Assembly (NCBI GenBank): GCA_965224705.1
Contig: OZ245056.1
Location: 832,001 to 896,000, forward strand
Reading direction: 5' to 3'
Origin: Spirochaetaceae bacterium
GTDB lineage: Bacteria > Spirochaetota > Spirochaetia > DSM-2461
Length of the DNA: 64,000 bases
The number at the start of each line of letters is the position of its first letter. Within the stretch, counting starts at the first letter, position 1. Positions 4,003 through 59,285 of this stretch are shown here, one piece after another. The notes under the pieces were generated by a model, which ran no database searches, was not told where the DNA came from, and was given only the letters and a program-made list of their open reading frames with translations. The position numbers were made by a program, and so were the translations under genes.

Positions 4003-4163
4003 GAGTCTGTCGGACTTTGAGACTTCGAGGCGATTTCTGATGATTTTTTTCCGATACAAGGCGGCAAAAGCGGAGCGTAGCTGGGCTACGTGAGCATTTT
4101 GACAACGCAGTAGCGGGAAAAAAGGGCAGAAATCGAGCCGTGAGGCGTAAGTCCGACAGGCTC
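4003..4163 (-). mobile_element. 161-bp palindromic MITE-like element, copy 1
   Basis: TIR GAGTCTGTCGGACTT...AAGTCCGACAGGCTC; flanks CCAG/CTAG; homologous to four other copies. Confidence 0.9.
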
Positions 4164-5489
4164 CTAGGGAGTCTGGCGTAGAAGCTCAATTGCTTTCCCG
4201 GCAGCATCCATCAAACTCAGTCCATTGAAACTCACCCTATTATGCAGATCCTTGAGGTTCATAGTGTTCCCTTCTGCTTCATCAGGGCCTGCAATTATGG
4301 CAAGGGGGATGCCTTTGGCTTCGGCATATTTGAACTGAGCGGTGATTTTCTTAGCTTCGGGATAAACTTCAGCAGAAAGACCGGCCGCTCTGAAATCTCG
4401 TGCATAGCTCTGATACCTGGCAAGAAGGGATTCATCCAGCATTAGAATCAGAACATCCGTAACAGAGGTGCGTTTTTTTAGTTTTCCCAATTCATCCATC
4501 CCGGCCATAAGCCTGTCCAGACCAATGGAAGCCCCAACTCCACCAAGAGGTTCTTTCATGAAGAGTCCTGTGAGATTGTTGTACCGACCACCAGAACAGA
4601 CCGAACCAAGGCCGGGTAATTCGTTGAGGAAGGTTTCAAATACGATGCCGGTGTAGTAATCAAGGCCCCGGGTGATGGATGGGTCCAGGGTAAGGATGTG
4701 CTGCATTTGAAGCTCATCCACTGCGTTTAATATGGTGAGCATTCTACTATGGTCCTGATCGTTTTCAGTACTGGATAAAGCAGCCATTTTCTCAAGAGTT
4801 TCCCGGTTGCTTCCTGTCGGTGTGATGAAGTCCAGAAGGATATCAATATCCCTGGAGTTCATGAGATCTGTCAGCAGAATTCTCACTTCATTCCGCCCGA
4901 TTTTTGCCATCTTGTCAACGATGCGGAGTATTTCAGTACATTCGTTCTTTAAGCCCAGTCTGACTAAAAGTTTATTGAACAGTCCCCTGTGGCTGAACCG
5001 GATATGGGCAGTTCCAGCACCTGCGGCATGAATTCCATCGGCCATCATCAACATAATTTCCAGGTCTGCTGATGGGCTGTCTGTTCCCACGATGTCGAAG
5101 TCGCATTGGATGAATTCCCTGTATCGGCCCCGTTGTGTGTTTTCTCCCCGCCAGACCTTACCTATGTGATAGCGCTTGAAGGGCATGACCAGATCGGATC
5201 TATGGCTGGCAACATAGCGGGCGAAGGGAACTGTCAAATCAAAACGGAGGGCGACATCCCTGCCTCCATGGTCCGTGAACCGATAAGTCTGTTTGTCTGT
5301 TTCGCCGCCGCTCTTGGAGAGCAAAATCTCAGTATATTCCAGTGCGGGAGTATCGATTGGAGTATAACCGAAGGAAGTGAAATGCTTCTGCAGGAGTCCT
5401 ATAAGCTCCTGCCTGGGGATCTCAGCATCAGGCAGAAAATCTCTAAATCCCTTGAGAACTCTGGGTTGTATTATATCAGACATTTTCAT
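4164..5489 (-). CDS. hisS: Histidyl-tRNA synthetase
   Basis: KGFRDFLP, LRFDLTVPFAR, GRYREFIQCDFD, RGLDYYTG and GGRY motifs. Confidence 0.97.
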   Translation of the reverse strand: MKMSDIIQPRVLKGFRDFLPDAEIPRQELIGLLQKHFTSFGYTPIDTPALEYTEILLSKSGGETDKQTYRFTDHGGRDVALRFDLTVPFARYVASHRSDLVMPFKRYHIGKVWRGENTQRGRYREFIQCDFDIVGTDSPSADLEIMLMMADGIHAAGAGTAHIRFSHRGLFNKLLVRLGLKNECTEILRIVDKMAKIGRNEVRILLTDLMNSRDIDILLDFITPTGSNRETLEKMAALSSTENDQDHSRMLTILNAVDELQMQHILTLDPSITRGLDYYTGIVFETFLNELPGLGSVCSGGRYNNLTGLFMKEPLGGVGASIGLDRLMAGMDELGKLKKRTSVTDVLILMLDESLLARYQSYARDFRAAGLSAEVYPEAKKITAQFKYAEAKGIPLAIIAGPDEAEGNTMNLKDLHNRVSFNGLSLMDAAGKAIELLRQTP

Positions 5490-5506
5490 TCCATATTATG
5501 GATCGA

Positions 5507-8359
5507 TCAGTAAAGAGGCAATCCCTGAAGTGTTATATCAAATGCCAGAGACCGGGTTTGCCACAGCCAGTTGAGGTCCAATCCAAGACTTGTTCCTGAA
5601 AAGCTGTTGAATGACGATAAGTCAATGTTCAGAGCAATGCCCGTTGACCACTGAGGGACGAGCGGACCGTTGGTTACAAGTGCATTGGAGTCTCCAGTCC
5701 ACTTAAAATCCGAATGTAGGCCAAGGCGCAAACGCTGAATGTAGACCAGAGCACCAAGCGGCTGGTCGAGATTGATGAGAGAGAACTCATAATCAACGCT
5801 GCCAAGAAGAGTTAGGCCTGCATATTGGCTGGCATATCCTCGTGCCCCACCCAATCGTGACGTGAAATTGGCTGTCATACGTTCTAAACCAAAGCGTAAT
5901 TGCAGGAAGGTATTGCGAAAACCGCCAGGGAGGTGGAGTATCAGTTCTCCTGTCAGAGATTCTGCCTTGTAAGAATGCAGTGGAATATGGGAATAAGTGC
6001 CTTTCACCTTCCATCCAAAATCAGGCTTAAAGGCCTGCTTTGATCCGGTTAAATAGCGGAACCACTCCGTTGTGTAAGTGAGTAGAGGATATACTGGGTC
6101 TTGTCCAAACCATATGAAGCCCCCGGAAACATTGAATATGAGAATATGTTCCCAGAGTCCATTTCTGGCGAGATTAGCAGCATAGAAGGCCCCGATCCTT
6201 GAGGAGATATAGTGACTTGGATTACTGGTGTTTATATTGCGGTATTTCCAGGTATTGAAGAGGTAAAAAACAGGCCTGATTCCTGTGTAAAGCAGTGACA
6301 GGTAGGCTCCCGGAGAAATCTCAGCGGTATCGTATGATGCACCGAGTTCCCATTCAAAGGTTTTAAGAATGTCACTGGACTTCACACCGAGCAGGAGATT
6401 TGAGGGATTATTTTTATCAACGGAGATACCCCATGAATGGATATTGAAAGCATGGGAGGTCAATCTATAGGGGGTTTCTGGATGCTCTGTATTGCCTCTG
6501 GCAATCACTTCGGCACTATTCTCAGGACTGCGAAGGGCCAGGTCCGGGACTGTTGGGGCTGGATCCTCAGAGATGTCATTGGGTGGACGTATGGATGAAC
6601 TCCGTCTTGAGTATTGAACTCTTGCAATGCGTTCTCCCTTACTGGATGAGTATTCAACAAAGTAAATCCACTGTCCATTGGAAGATGGTACTGGTAATGA
6701 TGCAGAATACCATCGCTGAGCAACATGATAGACTTCCTGAGTTTCGATGGAGACCGACCACAGGGATTCAATTCCGCCGGCATTACTCGAATAGATAACC
6801 TCCCGGCCATCAGCCGAATACACTGGATTTTTAACGGTTTCCCAGGACAGGGGTGTGAGCCAGTGCAGTTGAGGTGTATCAATCTCCCACTCGGCAATAC
6901 GCCTGCCGGAGTTACTGCGGACGGTGAAGACAATCCTATCTCCAGAAGGTGACCATGATGGGAAGGCCGCACTTGACTGCTCAAGGGAAAGTTCTTTTAG
7001 AATGGTTCCACTTCCCGCATCCAGAATGACGAGTCGATTTTTATTTCCACGGCCTGTTTCCGCTGCTGCAATTAATTGACCATCAGGAGAAAGTCCAGGG
7101 TAGAGATATCGGGAACCGGTAACCGGATAAGTTCGTTTGAGGATTCGGCCCTTTTTGCTCAAATCAACAACGGTGATATCACTGACACTGATGTCTGAAT
7201 TGCGGGGATTGAATCTGAGAGAGTTCCATGCCAGCCGGTAGCCGGACCGGTATGGTATCATGCTTATCCGTCCCTTTGAAGGAAAACGCATCCACTCGTC
7301 TTCAGTGCCGTCGGAGGACAGGCGAACCAGTTTCGGAGGATCCTTCAATGTTATGCGGCGGGCAAAGACGACATCACCCTCAGGACTTCCCGGGTCAACA
7401 AGAAGAGTATCGTAACGGGTGAAGCCTGTGTTTGGCTGACTGACTGTTTCGGCTGGTGTAAAAGAAGTTGATTCTTTAAGCTTACGGGTTTCAGCGGCGA
7501 GGCTCTGGAACATTTCCTTGAAGATTTCCCTGGGATGCTTGCCTGTCGCCTTTACCATCCCTATGTCAATAGCCAGGGCTGGGAGTCCAATTCTGGCTGA
7601 ATACCTGTAGATCGTGCTGATTGCTTCATCTCCGTATTTCTGACGAATCCACGCAGAGAGTTCATAGCCAAGGTGGTAGGCACTGGGATGATGCTCCTTG
7701 AAGGATTTATTGGCTATTTTGTGATAGCTGATCTCAGGATCGTCGGCAGCAATGAGGGCCATCTCCTGGGTGAACAGGGGATCCCGCCCCCGGCCTTCAC
7801 GGGACAGTTCTGTCTCCATGTAGGTGGAATCCCCCTCAAGCAGCCAATGGGGATGCCCCAGAACAATACCGGCTCCCCAGCCAAGGTCACCAAACAGAAC
7901 CCGCAAAAATCTGGTAAAGCCCTGGTCGGCAGCATCAAAGTGAGCAAGGTGGAGGCCTTCATGCCGTGCCAGGAGCATCCACCAGTCTGAAACGGCTGTA
8001 AATTCTTCTCCGGGAGTGGAATACCAGACACTTCTCCGCGGCATCAGGCTGACATAACCGTTGGCTGCTGCACTGAGATCTGTAAGAACAAGAGGCCATT
8101 TCTTCTTGCGGTGCTTTGGGGGTATATCACTGGAGACGGACTTGAGGACTTCATCCAGAACCATTGACAGGGCAGCGGCATCATCGGAAAGCGTGTCCGG
8201 GTAAATAATGTGAAAATGCTCCGTTTCTCTTTGCTTCCATTGGGATCCCGGGATGTATTGTGCGGAGAGGTCTATCAAGCATGTTGATGTGGTTAATATG
8301 CTCAAAAGGACCAGCAGTCGAAGTCTGGTTCGTAAGCAATGGTGCGAAGCTGGCAACAT
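5507..8359 (-). CDS. Exported protein with HExxH metallopeptidase-like N-domain, TolB/PD40 beta-propeller and probable C-terminal beta-barrel
   Basis: Signal-like N-terminus; RHEGLH followed by WLLEG; PGLSPDG, PSWSPSG and PVYSADG repeats; amphipathic aromatic C-terminus. Confidence 0.65.
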   Translation of the reverse strand: MLPASHHCLRTRLRLLVLLSILTTSTCLIDLSAQYIPGSQWKQRETEHFHIIYPDTLSDDAAALSMVLDEVLKSVSSDIPPKHRKKKWPLVLTDLSAAANGYVSLMPRRSVWYSTPGEEFTAVSDWWMLLARHEGLHLAHFDAADQGFTRFLRVLFGDLGWGAGIVLGHPHWLLEGDSTYMETELSREGRGRDPLFTQEMALIAADDPEISYHKIANKSFKEHHPSAYHLGYELSAWIRQKYGDEAISTIYRYSARIGLPALAIDIGMVKATGKHPREIFKEMFQSLAAETRKLKESTSFTPAETVSQPNTGFTRYDTLLVDPGSPEGDVVFARRITLKDPPKLVRLSSDGTEDEWMRFPSKGRISMIPYRSGYRLAWNSLRFNPRNSDISVSDITVVDLSKKGRILKRTYPVTGSRYLYPGLSPDGQLIAAAETGRGNKNRLVILDAGSGTILKELSLEQSSAAFPSWSPSGDRIVFTVRSNSGRRIAEWEIDTPQLHWLTPLSWETVKNPVYSADGREVIYSSNAGGIESLWSVSIETQEVYHVAQRWYSASLPVPSSNGQWIYFVEYSSSKGERIARVQYSRRSSSIRPPNDISEDPAPTVPDLALRSPENSAEVIARGNTEHPETPYRLTSHAFNIHSWGISVDKNNPSNLLLGVKSSDILKTFEWELGASYDTAEISPGAYLSLLYTGIRPVFYLFNTWKYRNINTSNPSHYISSRIGAFYAANLARNGLWEHILIFNVSGGFIWFGQDPVYPLLTYTTEWFRYLTGSKQAFKPDFGWKVKGTYSHIPLHSYKAESLTGELILHLPGGFRNTFLQLRFGLERMTANFTSRLGGARGYASQYAGLTLLGSVDYEFSLINLDQPLGALVYIQRLRLGLHSDFKWTGDSNALVTNGPLVPQWSTGIALNIDLSSFNSFSGTSLGLDLNWLWQTRSLAFDITLQGLPLY

Positions 8360-8927
8360 ATAACCAGAAGTATATCATTCAAATCCGGTTTTGTCATTGA
8401 TTTTTTATTTCTCCTTCTCAGGAGATCATGTGTGAAGGATGACATTGCGAGTTTTCCGGCTGTTGAAATTGCTGTTTCACAGGGCAATCCTTATCTTTCT
8501 CAGGACAAACGACTGGAACTGTTGAATGCAACTGAAAATAAATTATGGGCCATCCAGAAAGCCGCAAGAAGGGAAAAAAGCTTTACGGAACAAAGTGAAA
8601 ATTGCCGAACGATATGGGCGAATTATTGAAAAGTATATAGTGGACAAACACTTCAAGTAGAGATTAGGGACGATGACTTTTTGTTTCCCGTAACGAAGAA
8701 TCCATCGGACAGGAAGAGGCAAAGTTCACCTGTCAGGAAGGCCTTGCGTTCACCTCATGGCAATCACAAAACAACCTGAAGAGCTAAAAATACAGTACAA
8801 TCCCATGTAAACAGTAAATAACATAGAATTTACTTGTAAATCTTTTTTTGATAGCGAATTACTAGCTTTTTTAGCTAAAAAATTCGGCTTAAAATGGGTG
8901 TTGTTCTTAGAATGAACAATTCAACAC

Positions 8928-8986
8928 TTGTATTTTTTTCCATGATATATTATCATATCAATCAGCTTACAAATCAAACGAGGAGA
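8928..8986 (+). promoter_or_regulatory. Putative sigma70 promoter and RBS of the BCCT operon
   Basis: TTGTAT followed by an AT-rich TATATTAT -10 candidate, and GAGGAG ahead of ATG 8992. Confidence 0.4.
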
Positions 8987-8991
8987 AATGT

Positions 8992-10518
8992 ATGGACACA
9001 GGCAATGATACGCATGAATCTACAAATACCGATAAGTTGTCTTTGATTATCAGCGTCGGTTTTATGTTGTTATTTGTCATTTTTTATTTCATTAACAGTG
9101 AAGCATTAGGAAATGCAGTAAACACAGGTTTTGCGTGGTCGATTAAGTACTTCGGCGCATATTGGCAGGTGCTGCTTTTAGCAACATTTCTCATAGGCCT
9201 GGGGATCGCAATCAGCAGAAACGGAAGTTCAAAGCTGGGAGGATTAGAGAAGCCTGAGTTTATCACTCCTTCATGGATAGCGATTATAATGTGTACCTTG
9301 CTTGCGGGCGGAGGCGTTTTTTGGGCTGCTGCAGAACCCATTGCTCATTTTGTGAGTCCACCTCCAACATTTGCTGCGAGTGACAATCCATTTCAAATAG
9401 GAATCAATGCCCTCTCTCAGTCTTTTATGCATTGGGGTTTTTTGGCGTGGGCAATTTTAGGATCCCTTACGACGATAGTACTTTCCTATTTGCATTATGA
9501 CAAAGGCCTCCCATTGAAACCGAGAACATTGCTTTATCCACTCTTCAAAGAAAAAATTCACGGACCTATTGGTTCAGTCATCGATGCTTGTTGTCTCATT
9601 GCAGTTGCAGCAGGAACCATTGGACCCATTGGATTTTTAGGGCTTCAAGTGAGCTACATTTTGAATGACCTCTTCAATGTCCCAGATGCATTTATTACTC
9701 AACTCCTTGTCATCGCCGTTGCCACTTCCGTATATGTCACATCAGCTTTAACGGGTATCTATAAAGGCATACGAATTTTGAGTAAATACAATGTCAGCCT
9801 GGCAGTGCTCCTGATGCTCTATATTTTGATATTTGGGAGAACAGGATTTATCGTCGATGCTTATTTGCAAGGTGTCGGCAACCTTATTTCTAACTTTTTT
9901 GAAATGGCTGCCTTTCGGAGCGATACGGGTTGGCTTGGTTGGTGGACGGTATTTTTCTGGGGCTGGTTTCTGGGCTATGGTCCTGTCATGGCGATCTTCA
10001 TCGCTCGCATTTCACGAGGCAGAAGTATTCGTCAGATGATATTGACTATTAGCATCATCGCTCCTCTGGTAACGATGTTTTGGTTCACCATTGTTGGCGG
10101 AAGCGGCATTGCCCATGAAATTACAAGCGCAGGAGCGGTAAGCAAGGGGTTTGAAGGGTTCAATCTTCCGGGTGCCCTGTTGGCAATTACCAGTACCCTG
10201 CCATTGTCGACCTTGATATCGGTGTTGTTCCTGATTCTTACGATTACATTCATTGTCACAACAGGCGATTCTATTACATACACGATGAGCGTCATTAGCT
10301 CTTCATCGACGAAGCCTCCTCCAATGATGCGTGCCGTATGGGGTGTTGCAATGGGAATCGTAGCCATCATACTCATTTCAATTGGTTCAAGCGGTATTTC
10401 GGCATTGCAATCCTTCATTGTCATCACGGCAGTTCCAGTATCCTTGATATTGCTGCCGTCATTGTGGGATGCGCCGAAGATCGCAAAAAAGATGTCCGAA
10501 GAACAAGAAATAAAATAA
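8992..10518 (+). CDS. BCCT family (betaine/carnitine/choline) transporter
   Basis: 12-TM profile; GVFWAAAEP, HWGFLAW and WTVFFWGWFLGYGP..AIFIARISRGRSIR motifs. Confidence 0.93.
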   Translation: MDTGNDTHESTNTDKLSLIISVGFMLLFVIFYFINSEALGNAVNTGFAWSIKYFGAYWQVLLLATFLIGLGIAISRNGSSKLGGLEKPEFITPSWIAIIMCTLLAGGGVFWAAAEPIAHFVSPPPTFAASDNPFQIGINALSQSFMHWGFLAWAILGSLTTIVLSYLHYDKGLPLKPRTLLYPLFKEKIHGPIGSVIDACCLIAVAAGTIGPIGFLGLQVSYILNDLFNVPDAFITQLLVIAVATSVYVTSALTGIYKGIRILSKYNVSLAVLLMLYILIFGRTGFIVDAYLQGVGNLISNFFEMAAFRSDTGWLGWWTVFFWGWFLGYGPVMAIFIARISRGRSIRQMILTISIIAPLVTMFWFTIVGGSGIAHEITSAGAVSKGFEGFNLPGALLAITSTLPLSTLISVLFLILTITFIVTTGDSITYTMSVISSSSTKPPPMMRAVWGVAMGIVAIILISIGSSGISALQSFIVITAVPVSLILLPSLWDAPKIAKKMSEEQEIK

Positions 10519-10521
10519 ATT

Positions 10522-12888
10522 ATGAAGTCCCTATTACGCTCGCCAAATGATGTCATGAAAATCGAGCGCATAGGTGCAATGCACCAGAGCAGATTTAGTT
10601 TTGCAAGAATATTTATCAAAAACGCAAATAAGAATTCCTGGAAAATCTCTCTGGAAAAATGGGATTTAGACGAAAAGGGCTTCGGCAATGTTATATATTC
10701 TGTTAACACACCGAAGCGGCTTTATCATCTAGTCATATTTAGCAATGAACTTGAAGATAGTGAGCGTAATGACAGGGTTATCGCCGATAAATGGGATGTC
10801 GCCTGTGCGCTGGTGCAAGGAAAAGTTTCAGACGAACTATTAATTGACCTATGGCAGAATGTACCTTTACAAGAGAAAGGAAGATACAACGAAAAAGTAT
10901 TAACAATTAGCAGGGCAAATAAGAGCGTTCGCCTCTTTGATCATATCATAGAAGCCCTCTCATCGGGCAGACAGCCGAATATCGCCATGTTGGAAAAGGT
11001 GGGTTATATAATACGAACGACTGCTGTCTATGGAAATGGGAAGTTTGGAATGCTTGACTATGATGGACTTCAGGATAACGAAGATTTCAATATTCCATTT
11101 CTCACACAAATGTGTGTCGTATACATCTTGCGCTCATTTAGTATTGATTGGATTAACTTTTTGGCGAAGCAAAAAAATCCCGAAAAAGCCGTGAAGTTCA
11201 ATGATACCCTTTCAAGATTTTTGGGTGTCGGAAATGCCACAGGTCTTGGAATGACACTTTTCTTATTGAGACATCCAAAAATTGTTGATAATTGGTTGTA
11301 TCAAAGAGAATGCGCATTGAATGAAATCATGGCGGAAGTTCCATCGTCGAAGCATATCGCAAAGATGCTTACCCTACTCGATAGAGCAAGCAAGCATCTA
11401 AAAACTGTAGTGACAATAGATGAAAAGCAGAAAAAGCTAAATCGAATCGCATCGAAAGAAATTCAAGATGTTATTCAGCATATTCAAAGCATTGTGAAGG
11501 ACGACAATATATGGAAGAACATCATTCGCTCAAATAAAAAGTTGAGCTATGAGGCGCAAGAAACCTTTTTATCCTGTTTGCTTGAAATATATCCAGAAAT
11601 TGTGGAACCATACGAACGAAAGATGAACAGCGATGAAAACGAGCTTACTCTCGATAATGTAACGATCGCCGATTTATTGCACATCATCAAAGCAAAGTAC
11701 CAATGGGCAATTAATATTGATTTTGAGAAACCAGATGCGAATTTTTATTTCTGGTATATCTCCGAAGAGAAAGAAGAACCGAGGCTTGGTTTAAGAAACG
11801 AAGACGACGGTGCTGAAAAGGAGTTGCCTCTTGATGTGGCTCGGCAGGCACGCTATCTATATTCGGCTATCAAGGGTTTGGATCCTTGTATGCTGTTGAG
11901 CGAGTTTTTACTCATGCATCCTCAGTTTTCAAGTATTGCGAGACGCATTTATACTATGTCTGCCTGTCCGCTTGGGGAGATACAGACCAATATATTGGAT
12001 AAAAACTTCTTCCCGATGTATCTCCTCAGAGGAAAACTATCTTTTCTTGGAGCGACGAAGTTTGACCCACGATCTGACAAATGGGTGCAGGTTACTTTTT
12101 TTCAGAATGCTCCATTGATAGATGAATTGGATAAGGATGATTGGCTCTTTCCCCTCCTGGATAAAGAGGAGGTTACCACGCAGCCAATCAATAGAAAAAG
12201 AATATCCCTCAATGAGATTTACACAATATCATCGAAAGCCTTTTTGGCTTTGAAGAGTGAAGTTGGAGAGGCTGAAAATACTGCGAAGTGTTTAATGAAT
12301 ATGCATAAAATTGATTTTGACGGAATCTCTCTATTTGTTGAGGCATCAAAGAATCTGCCGAAGAGACTAAGATCAAGGCAGGTAGAGTTTCAAGAAGACA
12401 GGGTTGTTGTTGACTTGCAAAATCAAAGCCTCCTGTACTTCGCTCCGATGGTAATTGATTACGCTCTCAGTCAGGTGACTTTGAATAAGGAGTTCAAAAT
12501 CATTTTCAAGCACTGCACTCATGAATGGTCCATCATAGGTTTTTTAATGTCAATGTCTCTTGAAAATGTGCACACGATGACCAGGTGGAATGAAGGTAAT
12601 AAGTGTGTATGCGCTATTTTTTCCCCCGACAATCCATGGGCGAATATCACCACGTGTGCGCCCTCCAATTCAAATAATGAATTGACAATGCTGCTGAGTT
12701 CAAAGAGTTTATCGCATAAGAAAAGACATCACGCATTATACTCTTCAAGGGAGCTTCAAAATCGCGCGTTGCGCTCTATGAAAAAGGGAGTGATGGTTGA
12801 AGGTGATACACTGAAAGAATTTACCTCCCTTTATAAGGGTTTGCTCGTAGAAGCAACAATAGATTCAAGAAAGGGCGCAGGGGCATAA
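10522..12888 (+). CDS. Uncharacterised 788-aa protein; ~550-aa unknown domain fused to a DUF3726-like C-terminal domain
   Basis: Long ORF coupled to the BCCT gene; C-terminal part (ISLNEI..SKAFL...GEA to LLVEAT..SRKGAG) resembles DUF3726 as recalled. Confidence 0.7.
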   Translation: MKSLLRSPNDVMKIERIGAMHQSRFSFARIFIKNANKNSWKISLEKWDLDEKGFGNVIYSVNTPKRLYHLVIFSNELEDSERNDRVIADKWDVACALVQGKVSDELLIDLWQNVPLQEKGRYNEKVLTISRANKSVRLFDHIIEALSSGRQPNIAMLEKVGYIIRTTAVYGNGKFGMLDYDGLQDNEDFNIPFLTQMCVVYILRSFSIDWINFLAKQKNPEKAVKFNDTLSRFLGVGNATGLGMTLFLLRHPKIVDNWLYQRECALNEIMAEVPSSKHIAKMLTLLDRASKHLKTVVTIDEKQKKLNRIASKEIQDVIQHIQSIVKDDNIWKNIIRSNKKLSYEAQETFLSCLLEIYPEIVEPYERKMNSDENELTLDNVTIADLLHIIKAKYQWAINIDFEKPDANFYFWYISEEKEEPRLGLRNEDDGAEKELPLDVARQARYLYSAIKGLDPCMLLSEFLLMHPQFSSIARRIYTMSACPLGEIQTNILDKNFFPMYLLRGKLSFLGATKFDPRSDKWVQVTFFQNAPLIDELDKDDWLFPLLDKEEVTTQPINRKRISLNEIYTISSKAFLALKSEVGEAENTAKCLMNMHKIDFDGISLFVEASKNLPKRLRSRQVEFQEDRVVVDLQNQSLLYFAPMVIDYALSQVTLNKEFKIIFKHCTHEWSIIGFLMSMSLENVHTMTRWNEGNKCVCAIFSPDNPWANITTCAPSNSNNELTMLLSSKSLSHKKRHHALYSSRELQNRALRSMKKGVMVEGDTLKEFTSLYKGLLVEATIDSRKGAGA

Positions 12889-13049
12889 GAGTCTGTCGGA
12901 CTTACGCCTCACGGCTCGATTTTTGCCCTTTTTTCCCGCTACCGCGTTGCCAAAATGCTCACGTAGCCCAGCTACGCTCCGCTTTTGCCGCCTTGTATCG
13001 GAAAAAAATCATCAAAAATCGCCTCGAAGCCTTAAAGTCCGACAGACTC
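12889..13049 (+). mobile_element. 161-bp palindromic MITE-like element, copy 2
   Basis: Perfect TIR GAGTCTGTCGGACTT/AAGTCCGACAGACTC; flanks ATAA/ATAG; starts right after the TAA of the upstream CDS. Confidence 0.9.
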
Positions 13050-13153
13050 ATAGAGCCTCGCAAAAATGATATATAATCTTTTTTGTGCGGGAAAAACATT
13101 GAAACCGGCAATCTCTTTATGTAACATAACATTCAAGTGAGGGCAAAATAAAC

Positions 13154-13531: not shown

Positions 13532-13566
13532 ATGTATCAGGACAAAATCAAAATTATGGGGGTTTT

Positions 13567-16001: not shown

Positions 16002-16155
16002 AATGACTATCCTCTGAAAGAAGACGGGACCATGAACCCGGAATGCCGCCAGGAAAGAAAATTCTGGGCAAAGTAATACGATTGCCCTGCGTTTTTTCAG
16101 GCATTGAGTGTATTACTCTTTGCTTATATGATAACTTAAGAGATCTCAATTCATC

Positions 16156-17310: not shown

Positions 17311-17312
17311 TT

Positions 17313-18356: not shown

Positions 18357-18376
18357 CTATCAAGCACAAAAAAAGC

Positions 18377-36424: not shown

Positions 36425-37841
36425 ATGGGTAAAGAGACTACCACGGAAATGACTTTCCAGGAAGAGTGTGAAAACTGGTCCATACTGGAAAAGGTTCTAC
36501 GGGAAGGTGCACGGAGAATGTTGAAACAGGCGCTGGGAGCCTGTCGGACTTACGCCTCACGGCTCGATTTTTGCCCTTTTTTCCCGCTACGGCGTTGCCA
36601 AAATGCTCACGTAGCCCAGCTACGCTCCGCTTTTGCCGCCTTGTATCGAAAAAAAATCATCAAAAATCGCCTCGAAGTCTCAAAGTCCGACAGACTCCTA
36701 GAGAATGAAATCGAAGAATACCTCATGAAACATTCTCAGACCGATGAAAACGGCCATCGTCTGGTTGTACGGAATGGCTATCATCCCCAGCGTAATATTG
36801 TCACGGGAATCGGCCCCATGACAATCAAAGCACCGAGAGTTGATGATCGGAAAATCGATCCGGAGAGGAAAAACCCATTTACCAGTGCGATTCTTCCCCG
36901 GTATTTGAGAAAGATTCCCAGTATCGATAACCTGCTCCCTGTATTGTACTTGAAAGGAGTCTCGACAAGCGGTTTTCAGGATGTCCTGGCATCCATACCT
37001 GGGGAAGGAGCAAAAGGGCTCTCCGCTGCCAATATCATCCGTCTGAAGAAAAGCTGGGAAGATGAGTTTAACACCTGGAGCCACCGGGGTTTGAGCGGCA
37101 AGAAATATGCCTACATCTGGGTGGATGGTATTCATTTCAATGCCCGTCTGGAAGATGACCGATGCTGTATTTTGGTCATCGTCGGGGCGGATGAGAACGA
37201 AAACAAGGAGCTTATTGCCGTTGAATCGGGTTATAGAGAGTCGGCACTTAGCTGGAAGGAGATGCTGCTTTCAATTTGTCATAGGGGTTTGCACGAGGCC
37301 CCCAAGCTGGCGATTGGCGATGGGGCTCCTGGATTCTGGAAGGCTTTGACTGAGGTTTTCCCACAGACAAAGCGACAGCGATGCTGGGTCCACAAGATGG
37401 CCAATATTCTGGATAAGATGCCTAAATCTGTGCAGCCTGGAGCCAAGTCACTGATCCATGATATGTATATGGCTGATACGGAAGAAAACGCCCGGAAGGC
37501 CTATAAACATTTTATCTCTGTGTATGGGGCCAAGTACCCCAAAGCGACCGAATGCCTTAAGGAAGGATCAGGATGATCTGTTTCGATTTTATTCTTTTCC
37601 TGGTATTCACTGGATTCATATCCGCACGACAAATCCGATTGAATCAACATTCGCGACGGTCCGACTCAGGACAAAGCGAACCAAAGGTTGCGGGAGTAGA
37701 ATTGCGACTCTCACGATGGTTTGGAAGCCAAGTTGTGAGGCGGAGAAGACCTGGAAGAAGATGAAGGATTATAAACTGATCCCAAAAGTTATTCAGGAAG
37801 TTGTTTGTAAAGATGGAAATTTCATTGAGGAAGTTGCATAA
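36425..37841 (+). pseudogene. IS256 transposase with in-frame 55-codon MITE insert and a frameshift near 37565
   Basis: RNGY, LYLKGVST, WVDGIH, IGDG, QRCWVHK, then HIRTTNPIES in a second frame. Confidence 0.9.
36537..36697 (+). mobile_element. 161-bp palindromic MITE-like element, copy 3 (inside IS256 transposase)
   Basis: TIR GAGCCTGTCGGACTT/AAGTCCGACAGACTC; flanks CTGG/CTAG; splits KQAL|ENEIEE. Confidence 0.92.
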
Positions 37842-43271: not shown

Positions 43272-43276
43272 ATACT

Positions 43277-45396: not shown

Positions 45397-45409
45397 TAAA
45401 AACCTAAGC

Positions 45410-45436: not shown

Positions 45437-45444
45437 TATCTTGA

Positions 45445-46497: not shown

Positions 46498-46525
46498 ACA
46501 CCCCCCTTACCGGACAACGCCGGAT

Positions 46526-50224: not shown

Positions 50225-50338
50225 CCTGGTACTAATACTATCCCCCGATGCCTCAAACTGTCAAATAAATTAAACACGGTAAATTTCATACGTTGGCAAT
50301 AACTTGGCATGAGTGATTCATCTGTATATGATTGATTG

Positions 50339-50989: not shown

Positions 50990-51099
50990 CCGCGAATCAG
51001 GTGGTCCGTTTATTAAAAAACTAAAACGGAATGATGGGTGGTTCCAGACTACCATCCATCATGATCGTTTTTTAGTGCTCGCCGAAAAAGGAGTCGAAT

Positions 51100-52095: not shown

Positions 52096-52152
52096 ATTTA
52101 CCGGAAAACTCGTACCTTGATCCATGATGGAGCATCAAGTATAATTGGTAGA

Positions 52153-52722
52153 ATGAGGGTTAAATACTTACATTGTGCTTTTTTACTTCTGGTTCCTGCG
52201 TATTGCTTCGGGAATGTTGGCATACCGGTTATAGCACTGACATATCCAGGTTTCGCAGTACTTCTGCTGCCAATAATAATCACAGAGTATTTTATAATCA
52301 AATCCATTATTAATATAGAAAAAAAACCAATACTTGTAAGTACAGTTGTTTCCAATCTGGCTTCGACTCTCATCGGTGTACCACTGGCCTGGGCTGTTTT
52401 ACTGATACTGGAGATGATTACGACTGGCGGTGCGGCCATTCAGTCAGAAGGACTGATGTATTTTGTCGGATCTATTGCCCTTCAGTCTGCCTGGATGCTC
52501 CCCCCGGATTACTACTGGATGCTTCCTGCAGCTATCATTGTGAACCTGATTCCCGCTTTCTTTCTCTCAAAGTATTCCGAATACATAATTACGAAGAAAA
52601 TGATAAAAACAGTAGAAAAAAATCAGATTAAAAAAGCAGTTTTCAAGGCAAACAATGTAACCTATGGCGGCCTGTTCGCTATCGCTGTCGGATACCTGAT
52701 AATAACTCTGGTTCTAACTTGA
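52153..52722 (+). CDS. Hypothetical membrane protein
   Basis: AT-rich ORF with about 5 hydrophobic segments; SNLASTLIGVPL motif; start uncertain. Confidence 0.65.
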   Translation: MRVKYLHCAFLLLVPAYCFGNVGIPVIALTYPGFAVLLLPIIITEYFIIKSIINIEKKPILVSTVVSNLASTLIGVPLAWAVLLILEMITTGGAAIQSEGLMYFVGSIALQSAWMLPPDYYWMLPAAIIVNLIPAFFLSKYSEYIITKKMIKTVEKNQIKKAVFKANNVTYGGLFAIAVGYLIITLVLT

Positions 52723-54002
52723 ATGCCCTGAATCCCGCCCAGGACATTGAAAATGGTCGTTATAATGAAATCTTTTCGACCTTATACCCCGGTGAAGATC
52801 TATCCTTTCATCGGGAACGCTGGCTCTCTTTGATTGAGATTCATCGTAATAATACCGGGCAACTATCGCCGAGATTTTTTTCAGCCCCTGGAAGGACTGA
52901 GCTTGCCGGCAACCACACCGACCACAACCGGGGACGAGTTCTCGCTGCCAGCATTCAATTGGATACCATAGCCGCAATAACTGAGACCAATGATGACAGG
53001 GTAAACATTCTCTCAGAAGGATATCCGCCCGTACATGTTGATCTGAACTGTCTCGATAAAGCTAAAACCGAAAGTGGAAAAACCGATTCCCTCATACGAG
53101 GAATTGCTGCTTCCATTGTTAAGAGAGGGGGGAAAGTTGGCGGTTTCACAGCGTCTACGACCTCGCGGGTTCTCAAAGGTTCAGGATTAAGCTCATCGGC
53201 CGCTCTTGAGATCCTGGTTGGATCCATATACAGCGAGGTTTACAATAAAGGACGATTCAGTCCTGTGGAACTGGCCATCATAGGGCAGGAAGCTGAAAAC
53301 AACTATTTTGACAAGCCCAGCGGCCTGATGGATCAAATTGCCTGTGCTGTTGGAGGTGTTGTCAGTATTGATTTCGTTGACGCACTTCATCCACTGGTGG
53401 AACCCCTGAATGCCTGTTTCACCGAAACAGGATACACCCTGGCTATAGTGGATTCAAAAGCTGACCATGCCAACCTTACGCCGGATTACGCCGCTGTTCC
53501 CATGGAAATGCAGGCTGTAGCAGCGGAACTCAATGCAGAGGTTCTTCGTGATACTGTCGAAGAAGAATTCTACAAAGCCATACCCCGCCTGCGAGAGAAT
53601 ACAGGGGACAGGGCAATCCTCCGGGCACTCCATTTCTATACTGAAAATAAAAGAGTCGATGCCATGGCAGATTCTTTGAAACAGAGGGATATTGACTCCT
53701 ACCTTGCAGGCGTTCAACTTTCTGGAGACTCATCTTTTCGATTCCTGCAAAACATTTATTCGTCCCGAAATCCTGAAAACCAGGCTCTCACTCTTGCCCT
53801 GGCCCTGACAGATCTTTTTCTGGATGGTCAGGGTGCATCCAGGGTTCATGGCGGCGGATTTGCGGGAACAATACAGGCCTTCATACCGACACCTCGATTC
53901 AACGATTATGTTCAATACATGGAGAACTTCTTTGGAACGGGCTGTGTGCTGAACCTTGAAGTTCGAACTTCTCCAGCAGGAGAGATCAAAGCTGATTTAT
54001 GA
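52719..54002 (+). CDS. galK: Galactokinase-family GHMP kinase
   Basis: APGRTELAGNHTDHN, GSGLSSSAA, KPSGLMDQ, RVHGGGFAG. Confidence 0.85.
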   Translation: MNALNPAQDIENGRYNEIFSTLYPGEDLSFHRERWLSLIEIHRNNTGQLSPRFFSAPGRTELAGNHTDHNRGRVLAASIQLDTIAAITETNDDRVNILSEGYPPVHVDLNCLDKAKTESGKTDSLIRGIAASIVKRGGKVGGFTASTTSRVLKGSGLSSSAALEILVGSIYSEVYNKGRFSPVELAIIGQEAENNYFDKPSGLMDQIACAVGGVVSIDFVDALHPLVEPLNACFTETGYTLAIVDSKADHANLTPDYAAVPMEMQAVAAELNAEVLRDTVEEEFYKAIPRLRENTGDRAILRALHFYTENKRVDAMADSLKQRDIDSYLAGVQLSGDSSFRFLQNIYSSRNPENQALTLALALTDLFLDGQGASRVHGGGFAGTIQAFIPTPRFNDYVQYMENFFGTGCVLNLEVRTSPAGEIKADL

Positions 54003-54957
54003 CGACATTTCCTTTTTTTCGTCCGGTTTCAACATACCTGTGAGCTTCGGCAGTTTCTTCCAGCGGATAGCATCGGTCTATAACCGATTGTATCTTTTTT
54101 TCTTCAATCATCTTCTTGAGGAAAACCAGATCCTTGATAATTTCTTTTGCCGGTCTCGCATATGTGGCCGCAAGAATAGCCTTTTTCCTACTGAACTTTG
54201 AAGTCCATAACATTGACAGAATAGTGGATAACCTGCCGGAATTAAGATAGACCCCCTCCTGCTTCAACGACCCTTTACAACGGGAAAACGGTTCTTTGCC
54301 TGTCGTGTCAAAAATAATATCATAGGTCTGGTTGTTTCTGGTGAAATCGGTTTCAGTGTAATCAATTACCATATTGGCTCCTAAGGATTTCACTAATTCT
54401 AAATTAGCCGTACTACATACACCGGTAACTTCTGTCCCGAAATACCTGGCAACCTGTATTGAAGCCGTACCGACTGATCCGGAAGCACCATTAATAAGAA
54501 CTCTTTGTTTACTTTTAATATTGGCCTTATTTCGAAGAAAATGCAGTGCTGTCAATCCACCTTCAACAACAGCGGCGGATTCCTCATGAGTCATGTTCTC
54601 AGGTTTCACGGCCAGTGCCCCATCTTCCGGCATACACTTGAATTCAGCATGGGCACCCATAGAACTTCCAGTCATTCCAAATACAAGGTCACCCTTGCTG
54701 AACAATCTCACATCTTTACCAACGGCTTCAATTTCTCCAGACAGCTCCTGCCCCAATATGTTTTTGATGGGTTTTGTGAGACCCATGAAGAATCTGACAA
54801 AAAAAGGCCTTCCTTTTCGACCGATGAGGCCCGCTGTTGTGGCGGCTGCCGCATGAATTCTGATGAGTACTTCATTATCCCTGGGAACAGGTTTTTCCAC
54901 CTCCTGGAGTTGAAGAACATCCGGTTTTCCGTATTTTGTGCATACAATCGCTTTCAT
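53986..54957 (-). CDS. MDR-family NAD(P)-dependent oxidoreductase
   Basis: YGKPDVLQL, INGASGSVG, LGA..VIDY, AH.YVE.GRKKGNVV. Confidence 0.9.
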   Translation of the reverse strand: MKAIVCTKYGKPDVLQLQEVEKPVPRDNEVLIRIHAAAATTAGLIGRKGRPFFVRFFMGLTKPIKNILGQELSGEIEAVGKDVRLFSKGDLVFGMTGSSMGAHAEFKCMPEDGALAVKPENMTHEESAAVVEGGLTALHFLRNKANIKSKQRVLINGASGSVGTASIQVARYFGTEVTGVCSTANLELVKSLGANMVIDYTETDFTRNNQTYDIIFDTTGKEPFSRCKGSLKQEGVYLNSGRLSTILSMLWTSKFSRKKAILAATYARPAKEIIKDLVFLKKMIEEKKIQSVIDRCYPLEETAEAHRYVETGRKKGNVVINQL

Positions 54958-55104
54958 GATTCTCCTCCTTACTCTGTGAAGTTATGAACCAATGTTCATT
55001 TTACTTGAACCTGTCATCTGAAGACTTCCCTGTATTGTAGCGATTTGCTTCATGTATCACAATCATTCGTTCATTTGCAAATTGCCAGCCATGTTCTCTT
55101 ATAC

Positions 55105-55166
55105 TTGACAAATCTCATAATCAATACTAAAATGCAGCCTTGAAAACTCAATTTCTTATAAGGAGG
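55105..55166 (+). promoter_or_regulatory. Sigma70 promoter and RBS of the TAXI operon
   Basis: TTGACA-17 bp-TAAAAT; AAGGAGG before ATG 55172. Confidence 0.7.
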
Positions 55167-55171
55167 AAATT

Positions 55172-56176
55172 ATGTCACAGCATTACAGAATCCAGGTTCT
55201 GATTATAGGATTGTTCCTTTTACCGGCATCGATTCTTCTGGCAGCAGGCCAACCCGAAGAAGCCGGAACTACCGAAGAAGCCGGAACTACCAAAGAAGAA
55301 TCCTGGCAGTTGATTATCGGTACCGGAGGGACATCCGGAACCTATTACCCCATAGGCGGAGCGCTCAAAACCGTGTTTGAGGAGAGCCAGCTCGTTGACT
55401 CGCTAACGGTTGAATCAACCGGAGCCTCGGTTATGAACATCAACAATATCGATTCCGGGTTAAACCAAATCGCAATAGTCATGAGCGATGTCGCCTACGA
55501 CGCATTCAATGGCCGGGGACGCTTTGAAAACAAACCCATCGATATTCGTGCCATAGCGGGTATGTACCCCAATGTTGTCCAGATTATTGCCACTGCTGCC
55601 AGCGGAATAACTTCTGTAGAGGATATGCGGGGCAAGAGGATAGGTGTCGGCAAGGTCGGTTCCGGAGTGGAGCAAAGTGCCAACAAGGTACTCGAAGCGA
55701 CCGGCCTCAGTTATGATGATCTTGGACAGGTAACCAACACGGGATATGCGGACAGTGTACAGGCCATGCAGAATGGAACACTGGATGCGGCATTCTTTAC
55801 ATCGGGTGTTCCCAATTCCAGTATTGTCAATGTCATGCAGAGCATGGATGTCGTCTTTGTTCCTGTTTCGGGTCAAATTGCCTCCAATCTCATTGCGTCC
55901 TATCCATTTTATGAGGAATACACAATCCCTGCCGGCGTTGCAGCCCAGTACAGTCTTGACAAACCGCTGGAGACAGTCGCCATACGGAATCTTCTTATTA
56001 CCAGTGCGGAACTTCCCGACGATCTCGTACAGGAACTGACCAGCCGTTTCTATGACTATCTTGGAAGTGATCTGGTTACCATCGGCGCACTGCGTCAATT
56101 TGATCGTGAAGAAATGGACAGCGGTCTCGTGGTGGATCTCCATTCGGGGGCACAGGAATTTTACACTTCCCGTTGA
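55172..56176 (+). CDS. TAXI-family TRAP solute-binding protein
   Basis: IGTGGTSGTYYPIG, STGASV.N, G..GSG, G.LDAAF. Confidence 0.92.
   Translation: MSQHYRIQVLIIGLFLLPASILLAAGQPEEAGTTEEAGTTKEESWQLIIGTGGTSGTYYPIGGALKTVFEESQLVDSLTVESTGASVMNINNIDSGLNQIAIVMSDVAYDAFNGRGRFENKPIDIRAIAGMYPNVVQIIATAASGITSVEDMRGKRIGVGKVGSGVEQSANKVLEATGLSYDDLGQVTNTGYADSVQAMQNGTLDAAFFTSGVPNSSIVNVMQSMDVVFVPVSGQIASNLIASYPFYEEYTIPAGVAAQYSLDKPLETVAIRNLLITSAELPDDLVQELTSRFYDYLGSDLVTIGALRQFDREEMDSGLVVDLHSGAQEFYTSR
55254..55289 (+). repeat. 18-bp tandem duplication (EEAGTT x2) in the post-signal linker
   Basis: CCGAAGAAGCCGGAACTA repeated twice. Confidence 0.85.
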
Positions 56177-56832
56177 TGGGAAACCGGGACTTAAGTAGGA
56201 GCCTGTCGGATTTACGTCTCACGGCTCGATTTTTGCCCTTTTTCCCTGCTGCTGCGTTGCCAAAATACTCACGTAGCCCAGCTACGCTCCGTTTTTGTCG
56301 CCTTGCATCAGGAAAAAATCATCAAAAATCGCCTCGAAGCCTTAAAATCCGACAGACTCCTAGATTCCTTTTTATCTTAAATGTACTGTATTTCGGAATA
56401 ACTCCCATCCTTAGCCCGGGCGGGATGGGAGAATCCGATACATGCCTTGCGCTAAGCCGGAATGATGAACTCTTTCTGACAATTACGGTTTCCTTACCAC
56501 AGGACTTTGAGATTTCCTGGCTGCATTCCGTAGAAAAGGAAGAATGGCGGGAACAGTTTGTCATTGGTATCGACAGGACTATTCACATTGAGTCAACTCG
56601 GTTTCGTACATTTGGAGCAGGCGTACCGGACAATGCCCCGGAGACAGCAACTCAGGATGGGTGGGTTACTATGAGCGGCCTAAACCGTCAGGTTGATCCC
56701 CTGGTCCTTCGCTCCAATAATGAGACCAATCACAGGCTGAGCATAGCAAATCAGACCTATGTACTACCCGAAGGACAGTATTGGTTCACCGTCACGGACA
56801 CATGTTCAAAAGGGAAGAGAAAAATGCGATGA
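56176..56832 (+). CDS. DUF1850 family protein (TAXI-associated) carrying an in-frame 55-codon MITE insert
   Basis: F.ISWLHSVEKEEW.E, F.TFGAGVP; lies between the TAXI SBP and the fused permease. Confidence 0.85.
   Translation: MGNRDLSRSLSDLRLTARFLPFFPAAALPKYSRSPATLRFCRLASGKNHQKSPRSLKIRQTPRFLFILNVLYFGITPILSPGGMGESDTCLALSRNDELFLTITVSLPQDFEISWLHSVEKEEWREQFVIGIDRTIHIESTRFRTFGAGVPDNAPETATQDGWVTMSGLNRQVDPLVLRSNNETNHRLSIANQTYVLPEGQYWFTVTDTCSKGKRKMR
56199..56359 (+). mobile_element. 161-bp palindromic MITE-like element, copy 4 (inside DUF1850 gene)
   Basis: TIR GAGCCTGTCGGATTT/AAATCCGACAGACTC; flanks GTAG/CTAG. Confidence 0.92.
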
Positions 56833-58976
56833 AGAATAAGGACGGTATAGTGGAAGATAAAAACCTATCGCCCCCATTCGACCCGGACATATCCGGCGAC
56901 AAACATGAACCGCAGAGACTGACTCGTTATATAGGCCTGGTGGTATCGACACTGGCAGTCCTGCTTGGTCTTTTCCATCTCTACACATCCTTCGCAGGAC
57001 CTCTTGTGGACTTTCGCCAACGCAGTCTCCATCTCTACAGCCTGCTGACCATTGCATTTCTTGTCTATCCGGGAAGGTTGAAGAAAAAAAACATCCCTTT
57101 TCCCGGCATAATTCTAGCTATTCTCTCGCTTGCTATCGGTGTCTACATGCTTATAGCCTATGACCGCATAGCCCGCACGGGGGGAATTATTCAACAATTG
57201 GATTTTTTTCTTGGCATAGCAGCTCTGCTGCTCGTCATTGAGGCAACACGCCGCGCCCTCGGATGGAGTCTGCCCCTGCTGGCCCTTGGATTTTTGACTT
57301 ATGGAATATGGGCCAAACTCAGGATATATCCCAACTTAACCCCTCCCATTATTCTGGCATCAACAAAATCCATCATCGTCCACCTTGTCTATGTGACGGA
57401 AGGTCTGCTTTCCACCGCCATCGGTGTTTCCGCAAGCTACATTATTCTTTTCATTCTTTTCGGCAGCTTCTTACTGAAAACCGGAACGGGGGTTTTATTT
57501 CAAGACTTTTCTATGGCCATAAGTGGTGCAAGCGATGGCGGACCGGCAAAAGTGGCCACCATTGCAAGCGGTCTGATGGGCAGTATAAACGGAGCTGCCG
57601 TAGCCAATGTTGTCACAACCGGCACATTCACCATCCCCCTGATGAAGAAGGTCGGTTATAACAAAGACTTCGCCGGGGCTGTTGAGGCCAGTGCCAGCGT
57701 TGGCGGTCAGATTCTGCCGCCCATAATGGGTGCCGCGGCATTCATTATGGCAGAAAATCTGGGTATACCTTATCTGCAAATTGTCCTTGCCGGCATAATT
57801 CCGGCTCTACTGTATTACTTCGGTGTTCTGATACAGGTTCATCTCCGTGCCAAACGCCGCGGGCTTTCCGGATTGTCCAGGGATCAACTTCCCGGACTGC
57901 GCGAGGTAATGCGTTTACGGGGTTATCTGCTGTTTCCCGTTTTGGTTCTTGTCTGGCTGCTCTTCAGTGGACGAACACCGATTTTTGCAGCCTTCTGGTC
58001 CATAGTCAGTATCGTTCTGATTACCGCTTCTTCCCGATTTTTGAAGTTTGTTAGCGCAGCCGTCACATTGCTTGTCTTTTTTCCCAGTATCGCCGCATTT
58101 CTCGATACCGGAAGCTTCCCACTGCCCTTTGCTTTTCCCACTTTGGCGGTGCTTATTGCTGTTTCGGTTCTGCTCAATATTCTGTTCAGGTACAACCGAA
58201 AAGAATCAACCAGCCTGACCACCGTTGTGTCCGCCATTAACGACGGTGTCAGAGCCACTACAGGAGTTGCCCTGGCCTGTGCCTGTGTCGGTATTGTGGT
58301 GGGGATCTCCACCCAGACGGGTATTGCGCTTAATCTGGCAAACTTTGTCATAAAAGCGGGACAGCGAATTACGATACCGGCCTTACAGTTGTTCATTACC
58401 CTGATCCTGACGATGCTGACTTCAATCGTTCTAGGAATGGGATTGCCCAGCATTCCCACCTATATAATAACAAGTACAATGGCAGCTCCCATTTTGCTTG
58501 GTACCAGTTTTTTCTCCCAGATAATGGGCAGCACGGAGAATGCCATTTTTGTCGCCCACATGTTTGTCTTCTATTTCGGTATCTTTGCCAACATTACCCC
58601 ACCCGTTGCTCTGGCCGCCTTTGCCGGTGCGGGAATTAGCGGAGGCAATCCCACACGTACCGGCTTCATTGCAATGAAACTGTCCCTGGCAGGGTTTATT
58701 GTCCCCTTCCTCTTTGCCTTTGCGCCGCAGCTGTTGTTGATCAATATAGACCTGTCCATAATCTGGACCATTATCGGTGCCTTTGTTGGTGTGTTTATGC
58801 TATCGACGGCTGTCGAAGGCTATTGGCGAAGAACACTGCCTGTCTGGCTGCGCATAATTGTGGGCATAGCGGCAGTATTGTTTATCTACCCCAACCTTGT
58901 AAGCGACATTTTTGGTCTGTCCGCATTCCTTCTTCTGCTGCGCTTTGTATGGTGGCCGGGTAAGAATAAATCCTGA
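56829..58976 (+). CDS. TRAP transporter fused 4TM/12TM permease
   Basis: GGPAKVA, ANVVTTGTFTIPLMK, GGQILPPIMGAAAF, LGMGLP, NITPPVALAAF. Confidence 0.93.
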   Translation: MKNKDGIVEDKNLSPPFDPDISGDKHEPQRLTRYIGLVVSTLAVLLGLFHLYTSFAGPLVDFRQRSLHLYSLLTIAFLVYPGRLKKKNIPFPGIILAILSLAIGVYMLIAYDRIARTGGIIQQLDFFLGIAALLLVIEATRRALGWSLPLLALGFLTYGIWAKLRIYPNLTPPIILASTKSIIVHLVYVTEGLLSTAIGVSASYIILFILFGSFLLKTGTGVLFQDFSMAISGASDGGPAKVATIASGLMGSINGAAVANVVTTGTFTIPLMKKVGYNKDFAGAVEASASVGGQILPPIMGAAAFIMAENLGIPYLQIVLAGIIPALLYYFGVLIQVHLRAKRRGLSGLSRDQLPGLREVMRLRGYLLFPVLVLVWLLFSGRTPIFAAFWSIVSIVLITASSRFLKFVSAAVTLLVFFPSIAAFLDTGSFPLPFAFPTLAVLIAVSVLLNILFRYNRKESTSLTTVVSAINDGVRATTGVALACACVGIVVGISTQTGIALNLANFVIKAGQRITIPALQLFITLILTMLTSIVLGMGLPSIPTYIITSTMAAPILLGTSFFSQIMGSTENAIFVAHMFVFYFGIFANITPPVALAAFAGAGISGGNPTRTGFIAMKLSLAGFIVPFLFAFAPQLLLINIDLSIIWTIIGAFVGVFMLSTAVEGYWRRTLPVWLRIIVGIAAVLFIYPNLVSDIFGLSAFLLLLRFVWWPGKNKS

Positions 58977-59128
58977 TGTCAGCACCGATAATAGATCTCC
59001 AAAAAACACCGAAATAAAATTTCCGGTTTTGAGCCAAAAAACGAGCAAGCATCTGAAAGATGGAGCAAAACCCAGCTTACATCAGAAGGATACTGCCCCC
59101 GAAACTCCAGTAGAAACGTATGCACCAG

Positions 59129-59285
59129 GAGTCCGTCGGAATTTAAAGCTGCAAGGCGATTTTTGATGATTTTTTCCTGATACAAGGCGCCAAAAGCGGA
59201 GCGTGGGCTACGGGAGTATTTTGACAACGCAGCAGCAGGAAAAAAGGGCAAAAATCGAGCCGTGAGGCGTAAGTCCGACAGACTC
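59129..59285 (-). mobile_element. Palindromic MITE-like element, copy 5 (157 bp, 4-bp deletion in the central hairpin)
   Basis: GAGTCCGTCGGAATT...AAGTCCGACAGACTC; flanks CCAG/ATAG. Confidence 0.85.

Follow-up and report, generated by a model that had tools for sequence, protein, structure and literature searches.

Among the closest described counterparts of the repeat examined here are the Correia elements (CREE/NEMIS), which published accounts place in Neisseria alone (PMC5039591, PMC2649163), and whose RNA is reported to be bound, and then cut or protected, by RNase III (PMC2649163). Substrates that RNase III binds and leaves uncut are also known (PMC3867540). [quoted passage not shown] We analysed a 64,000-nt stretch of a Spirochaetaceae genome (the window, by which that whole stretch is meant) that holds five copies of a 161-bp imperfectly palindromic repeat. 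The five repeats are an ordinary kind of element, a type II non-autonomous MITE, which, judging from its sequence, is very probably mobilised in trans by the transposase of a resident IS1182. Inside the repeat, here bounded by IS1182-type ends, lies a folded core of about 78 nt that recurs in MITEs whose ends are of the IS5 or the TA type. The records that hold these bear the labels of six phyla, and the fold of the core is likely to be under selection. The best explanation as a whole, to which we give slightly less than an even chance, is an IS1182-moved MITE with a shared core that acts as a structured RNA.

All five copies lie where the first-pass annotation had placed them; their pairwise identity is 86-97%, and copies 1 and 5 are inverted compared to copies 2-4. 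A genome-wide collection of copies by BLAST, which that annotation had proposed, returned 246 loci, and copies and fragments together number about 250. When the ends were paired there were 156 two-ended elements and 93 ends left unpaired. Among the 156 elements 72 are 161 bp long, 13 are 162 bp, 7 are 160 bp, 16 are 53 bp, 4 are 46 bp and 18 are 285-287 bp, and others have further lengths. The terminal stem is 15 bp and there is no transposase frame inside the 161-bp element. The target sequence is CTAG-like and a 4-bp direct repeat is perfect in 70 of the 156, while lengths of 2, 3 and 5-8 bp fit at most three elements. Copies with a perfect duplication are younger, with a mean of 2.3 differences to the nearest copy compared to 5.8. 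Empty sites were found in IS256 and other repeats of the genome, and also in relative G009, where the orthologue of an alpha-amylase-family gene (G000:C1:1828367-1831693, L344) that carries an in-frame MITE insertion of 55 codons is empty. Head-to-tail dimers with a 4-bp spacer exist as well. What makes the element a MITE is its copy number, its duplication of a 4-bp target and its partner IS1182; the first-pass annotation, which did not recognise the family, had missed all three. Within the genus 9 of 13 genomes carried the element, the 11 genomes sampled elsewhere in the same bacterial family had none, and two Spirochaetaceae records (L136, L159) hold elements that are near-identical to the genus copies. 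A near-identical copy (L277, in G121) from a different Spirochaetota family suggests horizontal transfer.

CTAG is the rarest tetramer of this genome (observed/expected 0.28), with 675 sites of which 51 adjoin elements. The 4-bp duplication is perfect in 0 of the 5 window copies, and mismatched duplications are mostly CTAG against CCAG or CTGG. Conversion by Dcm/Vsr was considered as the cause and the pattern of CTAG to CCAG or CTGG fits it, but no Vsr gene was found; the mismatches may be ordinary decay of the rarest tetramer.

The resident IS1182 is intact, 1605 bp long and flanked by CTAG, and it encodes a 455-aa transposase (324 bits, cut-off 270); the genome contains this one intact copy and fragments. 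In copy 2 the MITE ends match the left end of the IS1182 at 18 of 19 bases and the right end at 16 of 16, the CTAG target is common to both, and the core-sense strand is the IS1182 sense strand. When the IS1182 was BLASTed against the genome its interior had no match to the MITE, so that the likeness is confined to the ends, and the core model described below (R1) gives no match in it. No IS1182 relatives were confirmed in metagenome contigs. The core was not found as a native part of an autonomous IS: R1 matched 3 of 29 transposase loci, and the one of these three that was inspected was a MITE inserted in an IS5 gene. A candidate partnership between an end of family B and an adjoining IS1182 of 546-549 aa was rejected, that IS having inserted into a MITE. 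At one locus of G009 (L306) an IS1182 end is followed by a tandem array made of half a core.

In the core a GCG/CGC helix is flanked by a CAA bulge on either side, and there are also a GNA/NA loop and an apical hairpin. In relatives of the genus many matches to the element were limited to its positions 43-122, and these turned out to be a second MITE family of 160-164 bp with unrelated ends, copies of which, about 163 bp long, occur in this genome too. The core of the second family is 95% identical to that of the window family, whereas the arms are 33-38% identical. In relative G003 an IS5 transposase fragment (142 bits, cut-off 140) begins with a sequence that the end of the second family matches, and two Acidovorax IS5 elements open with ends that agree with MITE ends in 13 of 15 bases. 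When GTDB was scanned for the exact pattern, at least 119 stretches came up; the 80 listed are labelled as Pseudomonadota (most), Planctomycetota, Omnitrophota, Endomicrobia, Anaerolineae and Spirochaetaceae, though individual bins may carry a wrong label. The covariance model R1 was built from 53 cores, none of them TA-ended, and when it was run on 76 of the listed loci 75 scored, many by construction. The core was found in at least 5 of 100 Spirochaetota, at least 10 of 60 Planctomycetota and at least 27 of 120 Gammaproteobacteria sampled, counts that are lower bounds as part of the candidates were scored. Arm identity is 26-52%, and arms were probably exchanged around the core by recombination. 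In viral sequences 37 of 38 pattern matches looked like chance by eye and by fold and one (L065) was real. Five loci of another Spirochaetia family (L273, L275, L276, L279, L280) carry a core variant whose middle stem is longer and whose AT-rich ends differ. Rfam gave 0 matches in the window and one chance-level match (E 0.5) among 11 loci; thus no match in Rfam to an already described family, which the first-pass annotation had said would remove the novelty, was found. No description of a core common to several end types was found in the literature searched, which left most subscription papers outside. Neither the core found across phyla nor its constant offset nor its tie to Correia elements appears to have been described; the sequences themselves may already sit in the MITE set of PMC11602168.

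Covariation was measured as alignment cells with two-sided change. The unfitted alignment of the 53 training cores contained 218 such cells compared to 73.6 in shuffled alignments, a number reached by none of 500 shuffles, and slid controls gave 60-85. The fitted alignment of 109 matches contained 606 compared to 195 when shuffled, and the 56 matches outside the training set, only 1 of which fits the scan pattern exactly, contained 361 compared to 112 (0 of 500), with slid controls again well below the observed number. In this last set the CAA bulges and adjoining letters are 93-100% conserved, except for one helix position at 86%, and the stems are variable; as these sequences were chosen by the model, some of the conservation is built in. 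The core also has G-A-rich internal loops, an RNA-like feature. The first-pass annotation had offered two explanations for the paired differences among the five copies, selection on the fold or homogenisation of the arms by template switching, and had named a lack of covariation in a larger alignment as evidence against its proposal. In the unfitted and the outside-training alignments the two-sided cells outnumber those of all 500 shuffles. Selection on the fold is supported by the cross-phylum family, in which the stems covary and the bulges are near-invariant, and not by the five copies alone. Template switching cannot account for bulges that are kept across phyla but may add to pairs seen within the genome, such as 13/149.

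Within the genome, copy 2 folds into a single rod on both strands, as had been described, at -61.3 kcal/mol (z -7.7) and -80.9 kcal/mol (z -10.0), and none of 200 shuffles was as good. The term fully palindromic overstates the case, the copies being imperfect rods: ungapped identity to the own reverse complement is 51-57%, 106-128 nt are paired and the bulges are conserved. The core-sense strand folds more stably in 88 of 89 distinct full-length copies. The within-genome alignment of 99 full-length copies, minus 3 with a different apex, comprised 86 distinct sequences and 62 hand-set pairs. Every paired difference named in the first-pass annotation is present in the copies. Repeated two-sided change occurs at 5 of the 62 pairs, in the inner and terminal stems (13/149, 35/127, 50/113, 54/109 and 68/93), and a few two-sided cells are also seen at 4/158 and 47/116. 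G-U cells outnumber A-C cells by 407 to 132, a further sign that the fold differs between the strands, and pair 73/89 is G-U in 81 of 86 copies. Pairs 50/113, 54/109 and 68/93 ride on one subfamily haplotype block, the four-gamete test is failed by 245 of 630 site pairs, which indicates extensive recombination among copies, and paired polymorphic sites are linked with a mean r2 of 0.34 compared to 0.06 for other site pairs, sites not being independent. Within-genome covariation alone is weak evidence because three of the five pairs lie on one haplotype block and the copies recombine.

The position of the core in the element is also constrained. Among 80 loci surveyed, 32 have resolvable ends and a duplication, and in 30 of these 32 the core starts 51-55 nt from the end (exactly 54 in 20), although they have 21 distinct end 12-mers. 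Resolved lengths cluster at 160-162 bp and 261-269 bp, and the long forms, shaped like a Y, hold another core on the other strand; in L354 the two cores lie 53 and 54 nt from the two ends. Of the loci found with the model, 5 of 22 were resolved with offsets of 53-55, and a further set in which 10 of 56 were resolved gave 53, 53, 54, 54 and 56, then 18, 23 and 59, for which mis-paired ends are likely, and 25 and 26, which belong to TA-ended Correia-type elements. Preservation of the reading frame as a general reason for the length of 161 bp was rejected: the second family is 163+4 bp, and 3-bp duplications with 161 bp occur in other elements.

The copies in the window and their parts are as follows.

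4003..4163, + strand (core-sense strand is +): MITE copy 1; flanks CCAG/CTAG, with the stop codon of hisS (gene on the - strand) inside the right flank
4045..4123, + strand: folded core of copy 1; R1 match, 52.6 bits
12889..13049, - strand: MITE copy 2; flanks ATAA/ATAG, with the stop codon of the open reading frame (ORF) 10522-12888 inside the left flank
13031..13049, - strand: terminal repeat of copy 2; 18/19 bases as in the IS1182 left end
12889..12904, + strand: terminal repeat of copy 2; 16/16 bases as in the IS1182 right end
12929..13007, - strand: folded core of copy 2; R1 match, 50.5 bits; first CAA bulge 54 nt from the element end
36537..36697, - strand: MITE copy 3; in-frame insertion in an IS256 transposase gene, flanks CTGG/CTAG
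36577..36655, - strand: core of copy 3; R1 match, 50.6 bits
36425..37576, + strand: frame of the IS256 transposase, open across copy 3; belongs to the host site and not to the element
56199..56359, - strand: MITE copy 4; second subfamily haplotype, flanks GTAG/CTAG
56239..56317, - strand: core of copy 4; R1 match, 55 bits
59129..59285, + strand: MITE copy 5; more decayed, apical hairpin with a 4-nt deletion, flanks CCAG/ATAG
59171..59245, + strand: core of copy 5; R1 match, 40.1 bits

The empty IS256 counterpart of the copy 3 site, elsewhere in the genome, has one CTGG only. There was no clean empty site for the window copies in G009, where copy 1 is represented by a decayed orthologous remnant and where no close match to the flanks of copies 2, 4 and 5 was found; no plasmid match to the window element was found either. 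Next to copy 1, at 4164-4176, there is a remnant of another terminal repeat and then the end of hisS within the target duplication, and the hisS orthologue in G009 has a different 3' end that adjoins a decayed element. In copy 2 neither a terminator nor an internal promoter-like site was found. Beyond copy 5, two large ORFs take up 59435-63312; NCBIfam gave no match for the first, and in G009 the homologues of the two are arranged as tandem arrays.

The family has further variants. The 18 elements of 285-287 bp (for example C1:1341554-1341839) carry an extra 125-nt multi-hairpin insert, and in at least three deletion derivatives of about 160 bp the apex is a hairpin of this insert that replaces the core. 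Group II introns lie inside MITEs at 4 of 6 intron 3' ends inspected (L003, G000:C1:1652356-1654669; G000:C1:1534281, 1943448 and 2472349), with a reverse transcriptase scoring 341 bits on TIGR04416 (cut-off 300); three are exactly at the GGA loop of the core and one is in the 286-bp form, all in core-sense orientation. Another multicopy repeat with a short terminal hairpin and more than 10 copies (G000:C1:131656, 757565, 1588146 and others) is itself a target of MITE insertion.

The IS1182 transposase, then, very probably moves the MITE in trans, making 4-bp CTAG-like duplications, and the core is a strand-specific folded module common to MITEs with other ends. Its RNA would be bound by a conserved host double-stranded-RNA protein, for which RNase III, encoded in this genome, is the predicted candidate, and on this binding would depend the cleavage or survival of transcripts that contain the element. 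Because the core travels with IS1182-, IS5- and TA-type ends it is not specific to one transposase, and hence its partner is likely to be a conserved host factor. That the core acts as RNA rather than DNA, and with this partner, is a tentative proposal drawn in part by analogy with the Correia elements, and we would put its chances below even.

Several observations weigh against this proposal. DNA energy rules also favour the core-sense strand (15 of 15), and a role in transposition would suit the constant distance from the DNA end no less well. The effect of RNase III on Correia elements is ascribed to the terminal repeats and not to the core (PMC2649163, PMC10969869). The covariation shuffles ignore the relatedness of the sequences, and with the number of pairs showing two-sided change as the measure the result was not significant in two of the three alignments (33 of 500 shuffles for the unfitted and 117 of 500 for the outside-training alignment). 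In tandem contexts the host genes carry the anti-core strand in 48 cases and the core strand in 23 (p 0.004), and a stop codon inside the target duplication was seen 19 times for the anti-core strand and 2 times for the core strand (p 2e-4), counts that rest on crude ORF calls. Core-less short forms show the same anti-core bias (7:1 and 4:0), and therefore the host-strand bias probably stems from the ends and says little on the core. Two frames are open on the anti-core strand; on the core-sense strand all three contain stops. Neither a discrete transcript nor a cut site was seen in the RNA contigs, which are strand-blind: metatranscriptome contigs do contain the element but carry no strand, level or cleavage information. 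The RNA runs weigh neither way: their summed depth is 550-1030 over the element compared to 0-8 over the flanks, which resembles the multi-copy pile-up in runs not labelled RNA, and no joints that skip the whole element were seen.

A close rival, unlikely in our estimate but better than the RNA role at explaining the fixed offset, is that the core is folded as single-stranded DNA during replication or transposition and recruits a conserved host factor, say a priming, restart or bending protein, at a constant distance from the transposase-bound end, which would speed up copying no matter which transposase acts on the ends. The offset of 51-55 nt kept across 21 distinct end 12-mers speaks for such a role, and so do the Y-shaped long forms with their additional core in the opposite orientation, the coincidence of the core-sense strand with the IS1182 sense strand together with its favoured DNA folding, the head-to-tail dimers, and the insertion of group II introns exactly at the GGA loop. 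It fits less well with the core-less 53-bp forms, which reached 16 copies (these may stem from repeated deletion), with the Correia-type offset of 25-26 nt, with the lack of a visible replichore bias (72:56, p 0.18; the skew is scrambled), and with the fixed G-U pairs, which would be more typical of RNA.

It is improbable that the conserved letters are instead a binding site in double-stranded DNA, whose halves would read as direct repeats along the same strand, or that they form an inward promoter, the rod being a by-product of how the element arose. The two motif halves are alike and their distance from the end is constant, and for Correia elements there are reports of promoters and of an IHF site (PMC2229807, PMC10969869), yet a duplex site would not need the stems between and around the motif to covary, the spacing of the halves varies widely (matches span 73-99 nt) and the interior of copy 2 lacks a promoter-like site. 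Least probable of all is a neutral core whose arms are kept complementary by template switching or hairpin repair and which is spread by horizontal transfer, since such processes, for which the recombination among copies and the L277 element could be cited, erase bulges, and the bulge letters are conserved here while stems and arms are rewritten.

Returning to the core, we tentatively suggest, with confidence short of even, that the heritable unit is an old selfish folded core that swaps IS1182-, IS5- and TA-type ends according to the available transposase, holds its motif at a measured distance and exploits a conserved host factor, so that hundreds of repeats from several phyla, Correia elements included, would be one superfamily. 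A core that covaries across phyla, with three end types and at a fixed distance from the end, indicates that the interior of such a MITE is likely to be under selection rather than filler. The core gives exact positions to mutate, by which the function of the Correia core and the amplification of some MITEs become testable, and the core model annotates a common unlabelled repeat (27 of the 120 Gammaproteobacteria sampled) that creates spurious or extended reading frames.

Compared with known systems, the window element is like the IS1182 family and its MITEs in its ends (18/19 and 16/16) and its CTAG target, and unlike them in an interior that is unrelated to that of the IS. REP/REPIN repeats with RAYT were ruled out by the target duplication and the DDE partner; REPINs have no target duplication and an HUH transposase as partner. 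Membership in ERIC was also rejected, as the best R1 score was 10.9 bits (E 0.46, not significant) among 13 loci and the whole E. coli chromosome; the E. coli repeat tested is presumably ERIC, its record being without such annotation. ERIC/IRU (127 bp, enterobacteria) resembles the window family as a rod-shaped MITE with an orientation-dependent effect on mRNA (PMC2229807), and one copy has the lower motif halves, but its inner stem is longer. The Rickettsia palindromic elements (RPE) and YPAL/RU-2, likened here by description only, are palindromic repeats that have an open frame and are able to insert without breaking the host's frame (PMC2229807), as 161+4 bp, or 55 codons, also can, two in-frame insertions having been confirmed against empty sites; unlike them, the window type of family does not keep the frame in general, as the 163+4 bp of the second family shows. 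The bcr1 repeat of the Bacillus cereus group, also set against the core by description only, is a mobile repeat of about 155 bp with reported compensatory changes (PMC3184786) and thus a precedent for covariation inside a MITE-like element, but it is a cruciform with 5-bp direct repeats from a single species group.

A further likeness is to the Correia elements, which are non-coding MITEs with a long stem-loop and whose 105-106-bp forms carry both motif halves. Correia loci were fetched with the published terminal repeat (PMC5039591), which matched 27 of 61 Neisseria genomes, and 12 loci were scored with R1. Three loci with elements of the 105-106-bp class gave 24.6-25.5 bits (E about 2-3e-5, a rough value), one of the three also gave 20.3 bits for a 101-bp form, and a 68-bp form at another locus gave 16 bits (E 0.012), while R1 had no match in the five forms of 156 bp or in three others that were truncated or interrupted. 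By its ends the window family is not Correia, since the 26-bp Correia terminal repeat and TA target are absent: Correia elements have TA ends and a core 25-26 nt from the end, whereas the window family has G...C ends, a 4-bp duplication and a distance of 54 nt. The same core model gives 38-42 bits to related elements with TA ends in other species of Neisseria.

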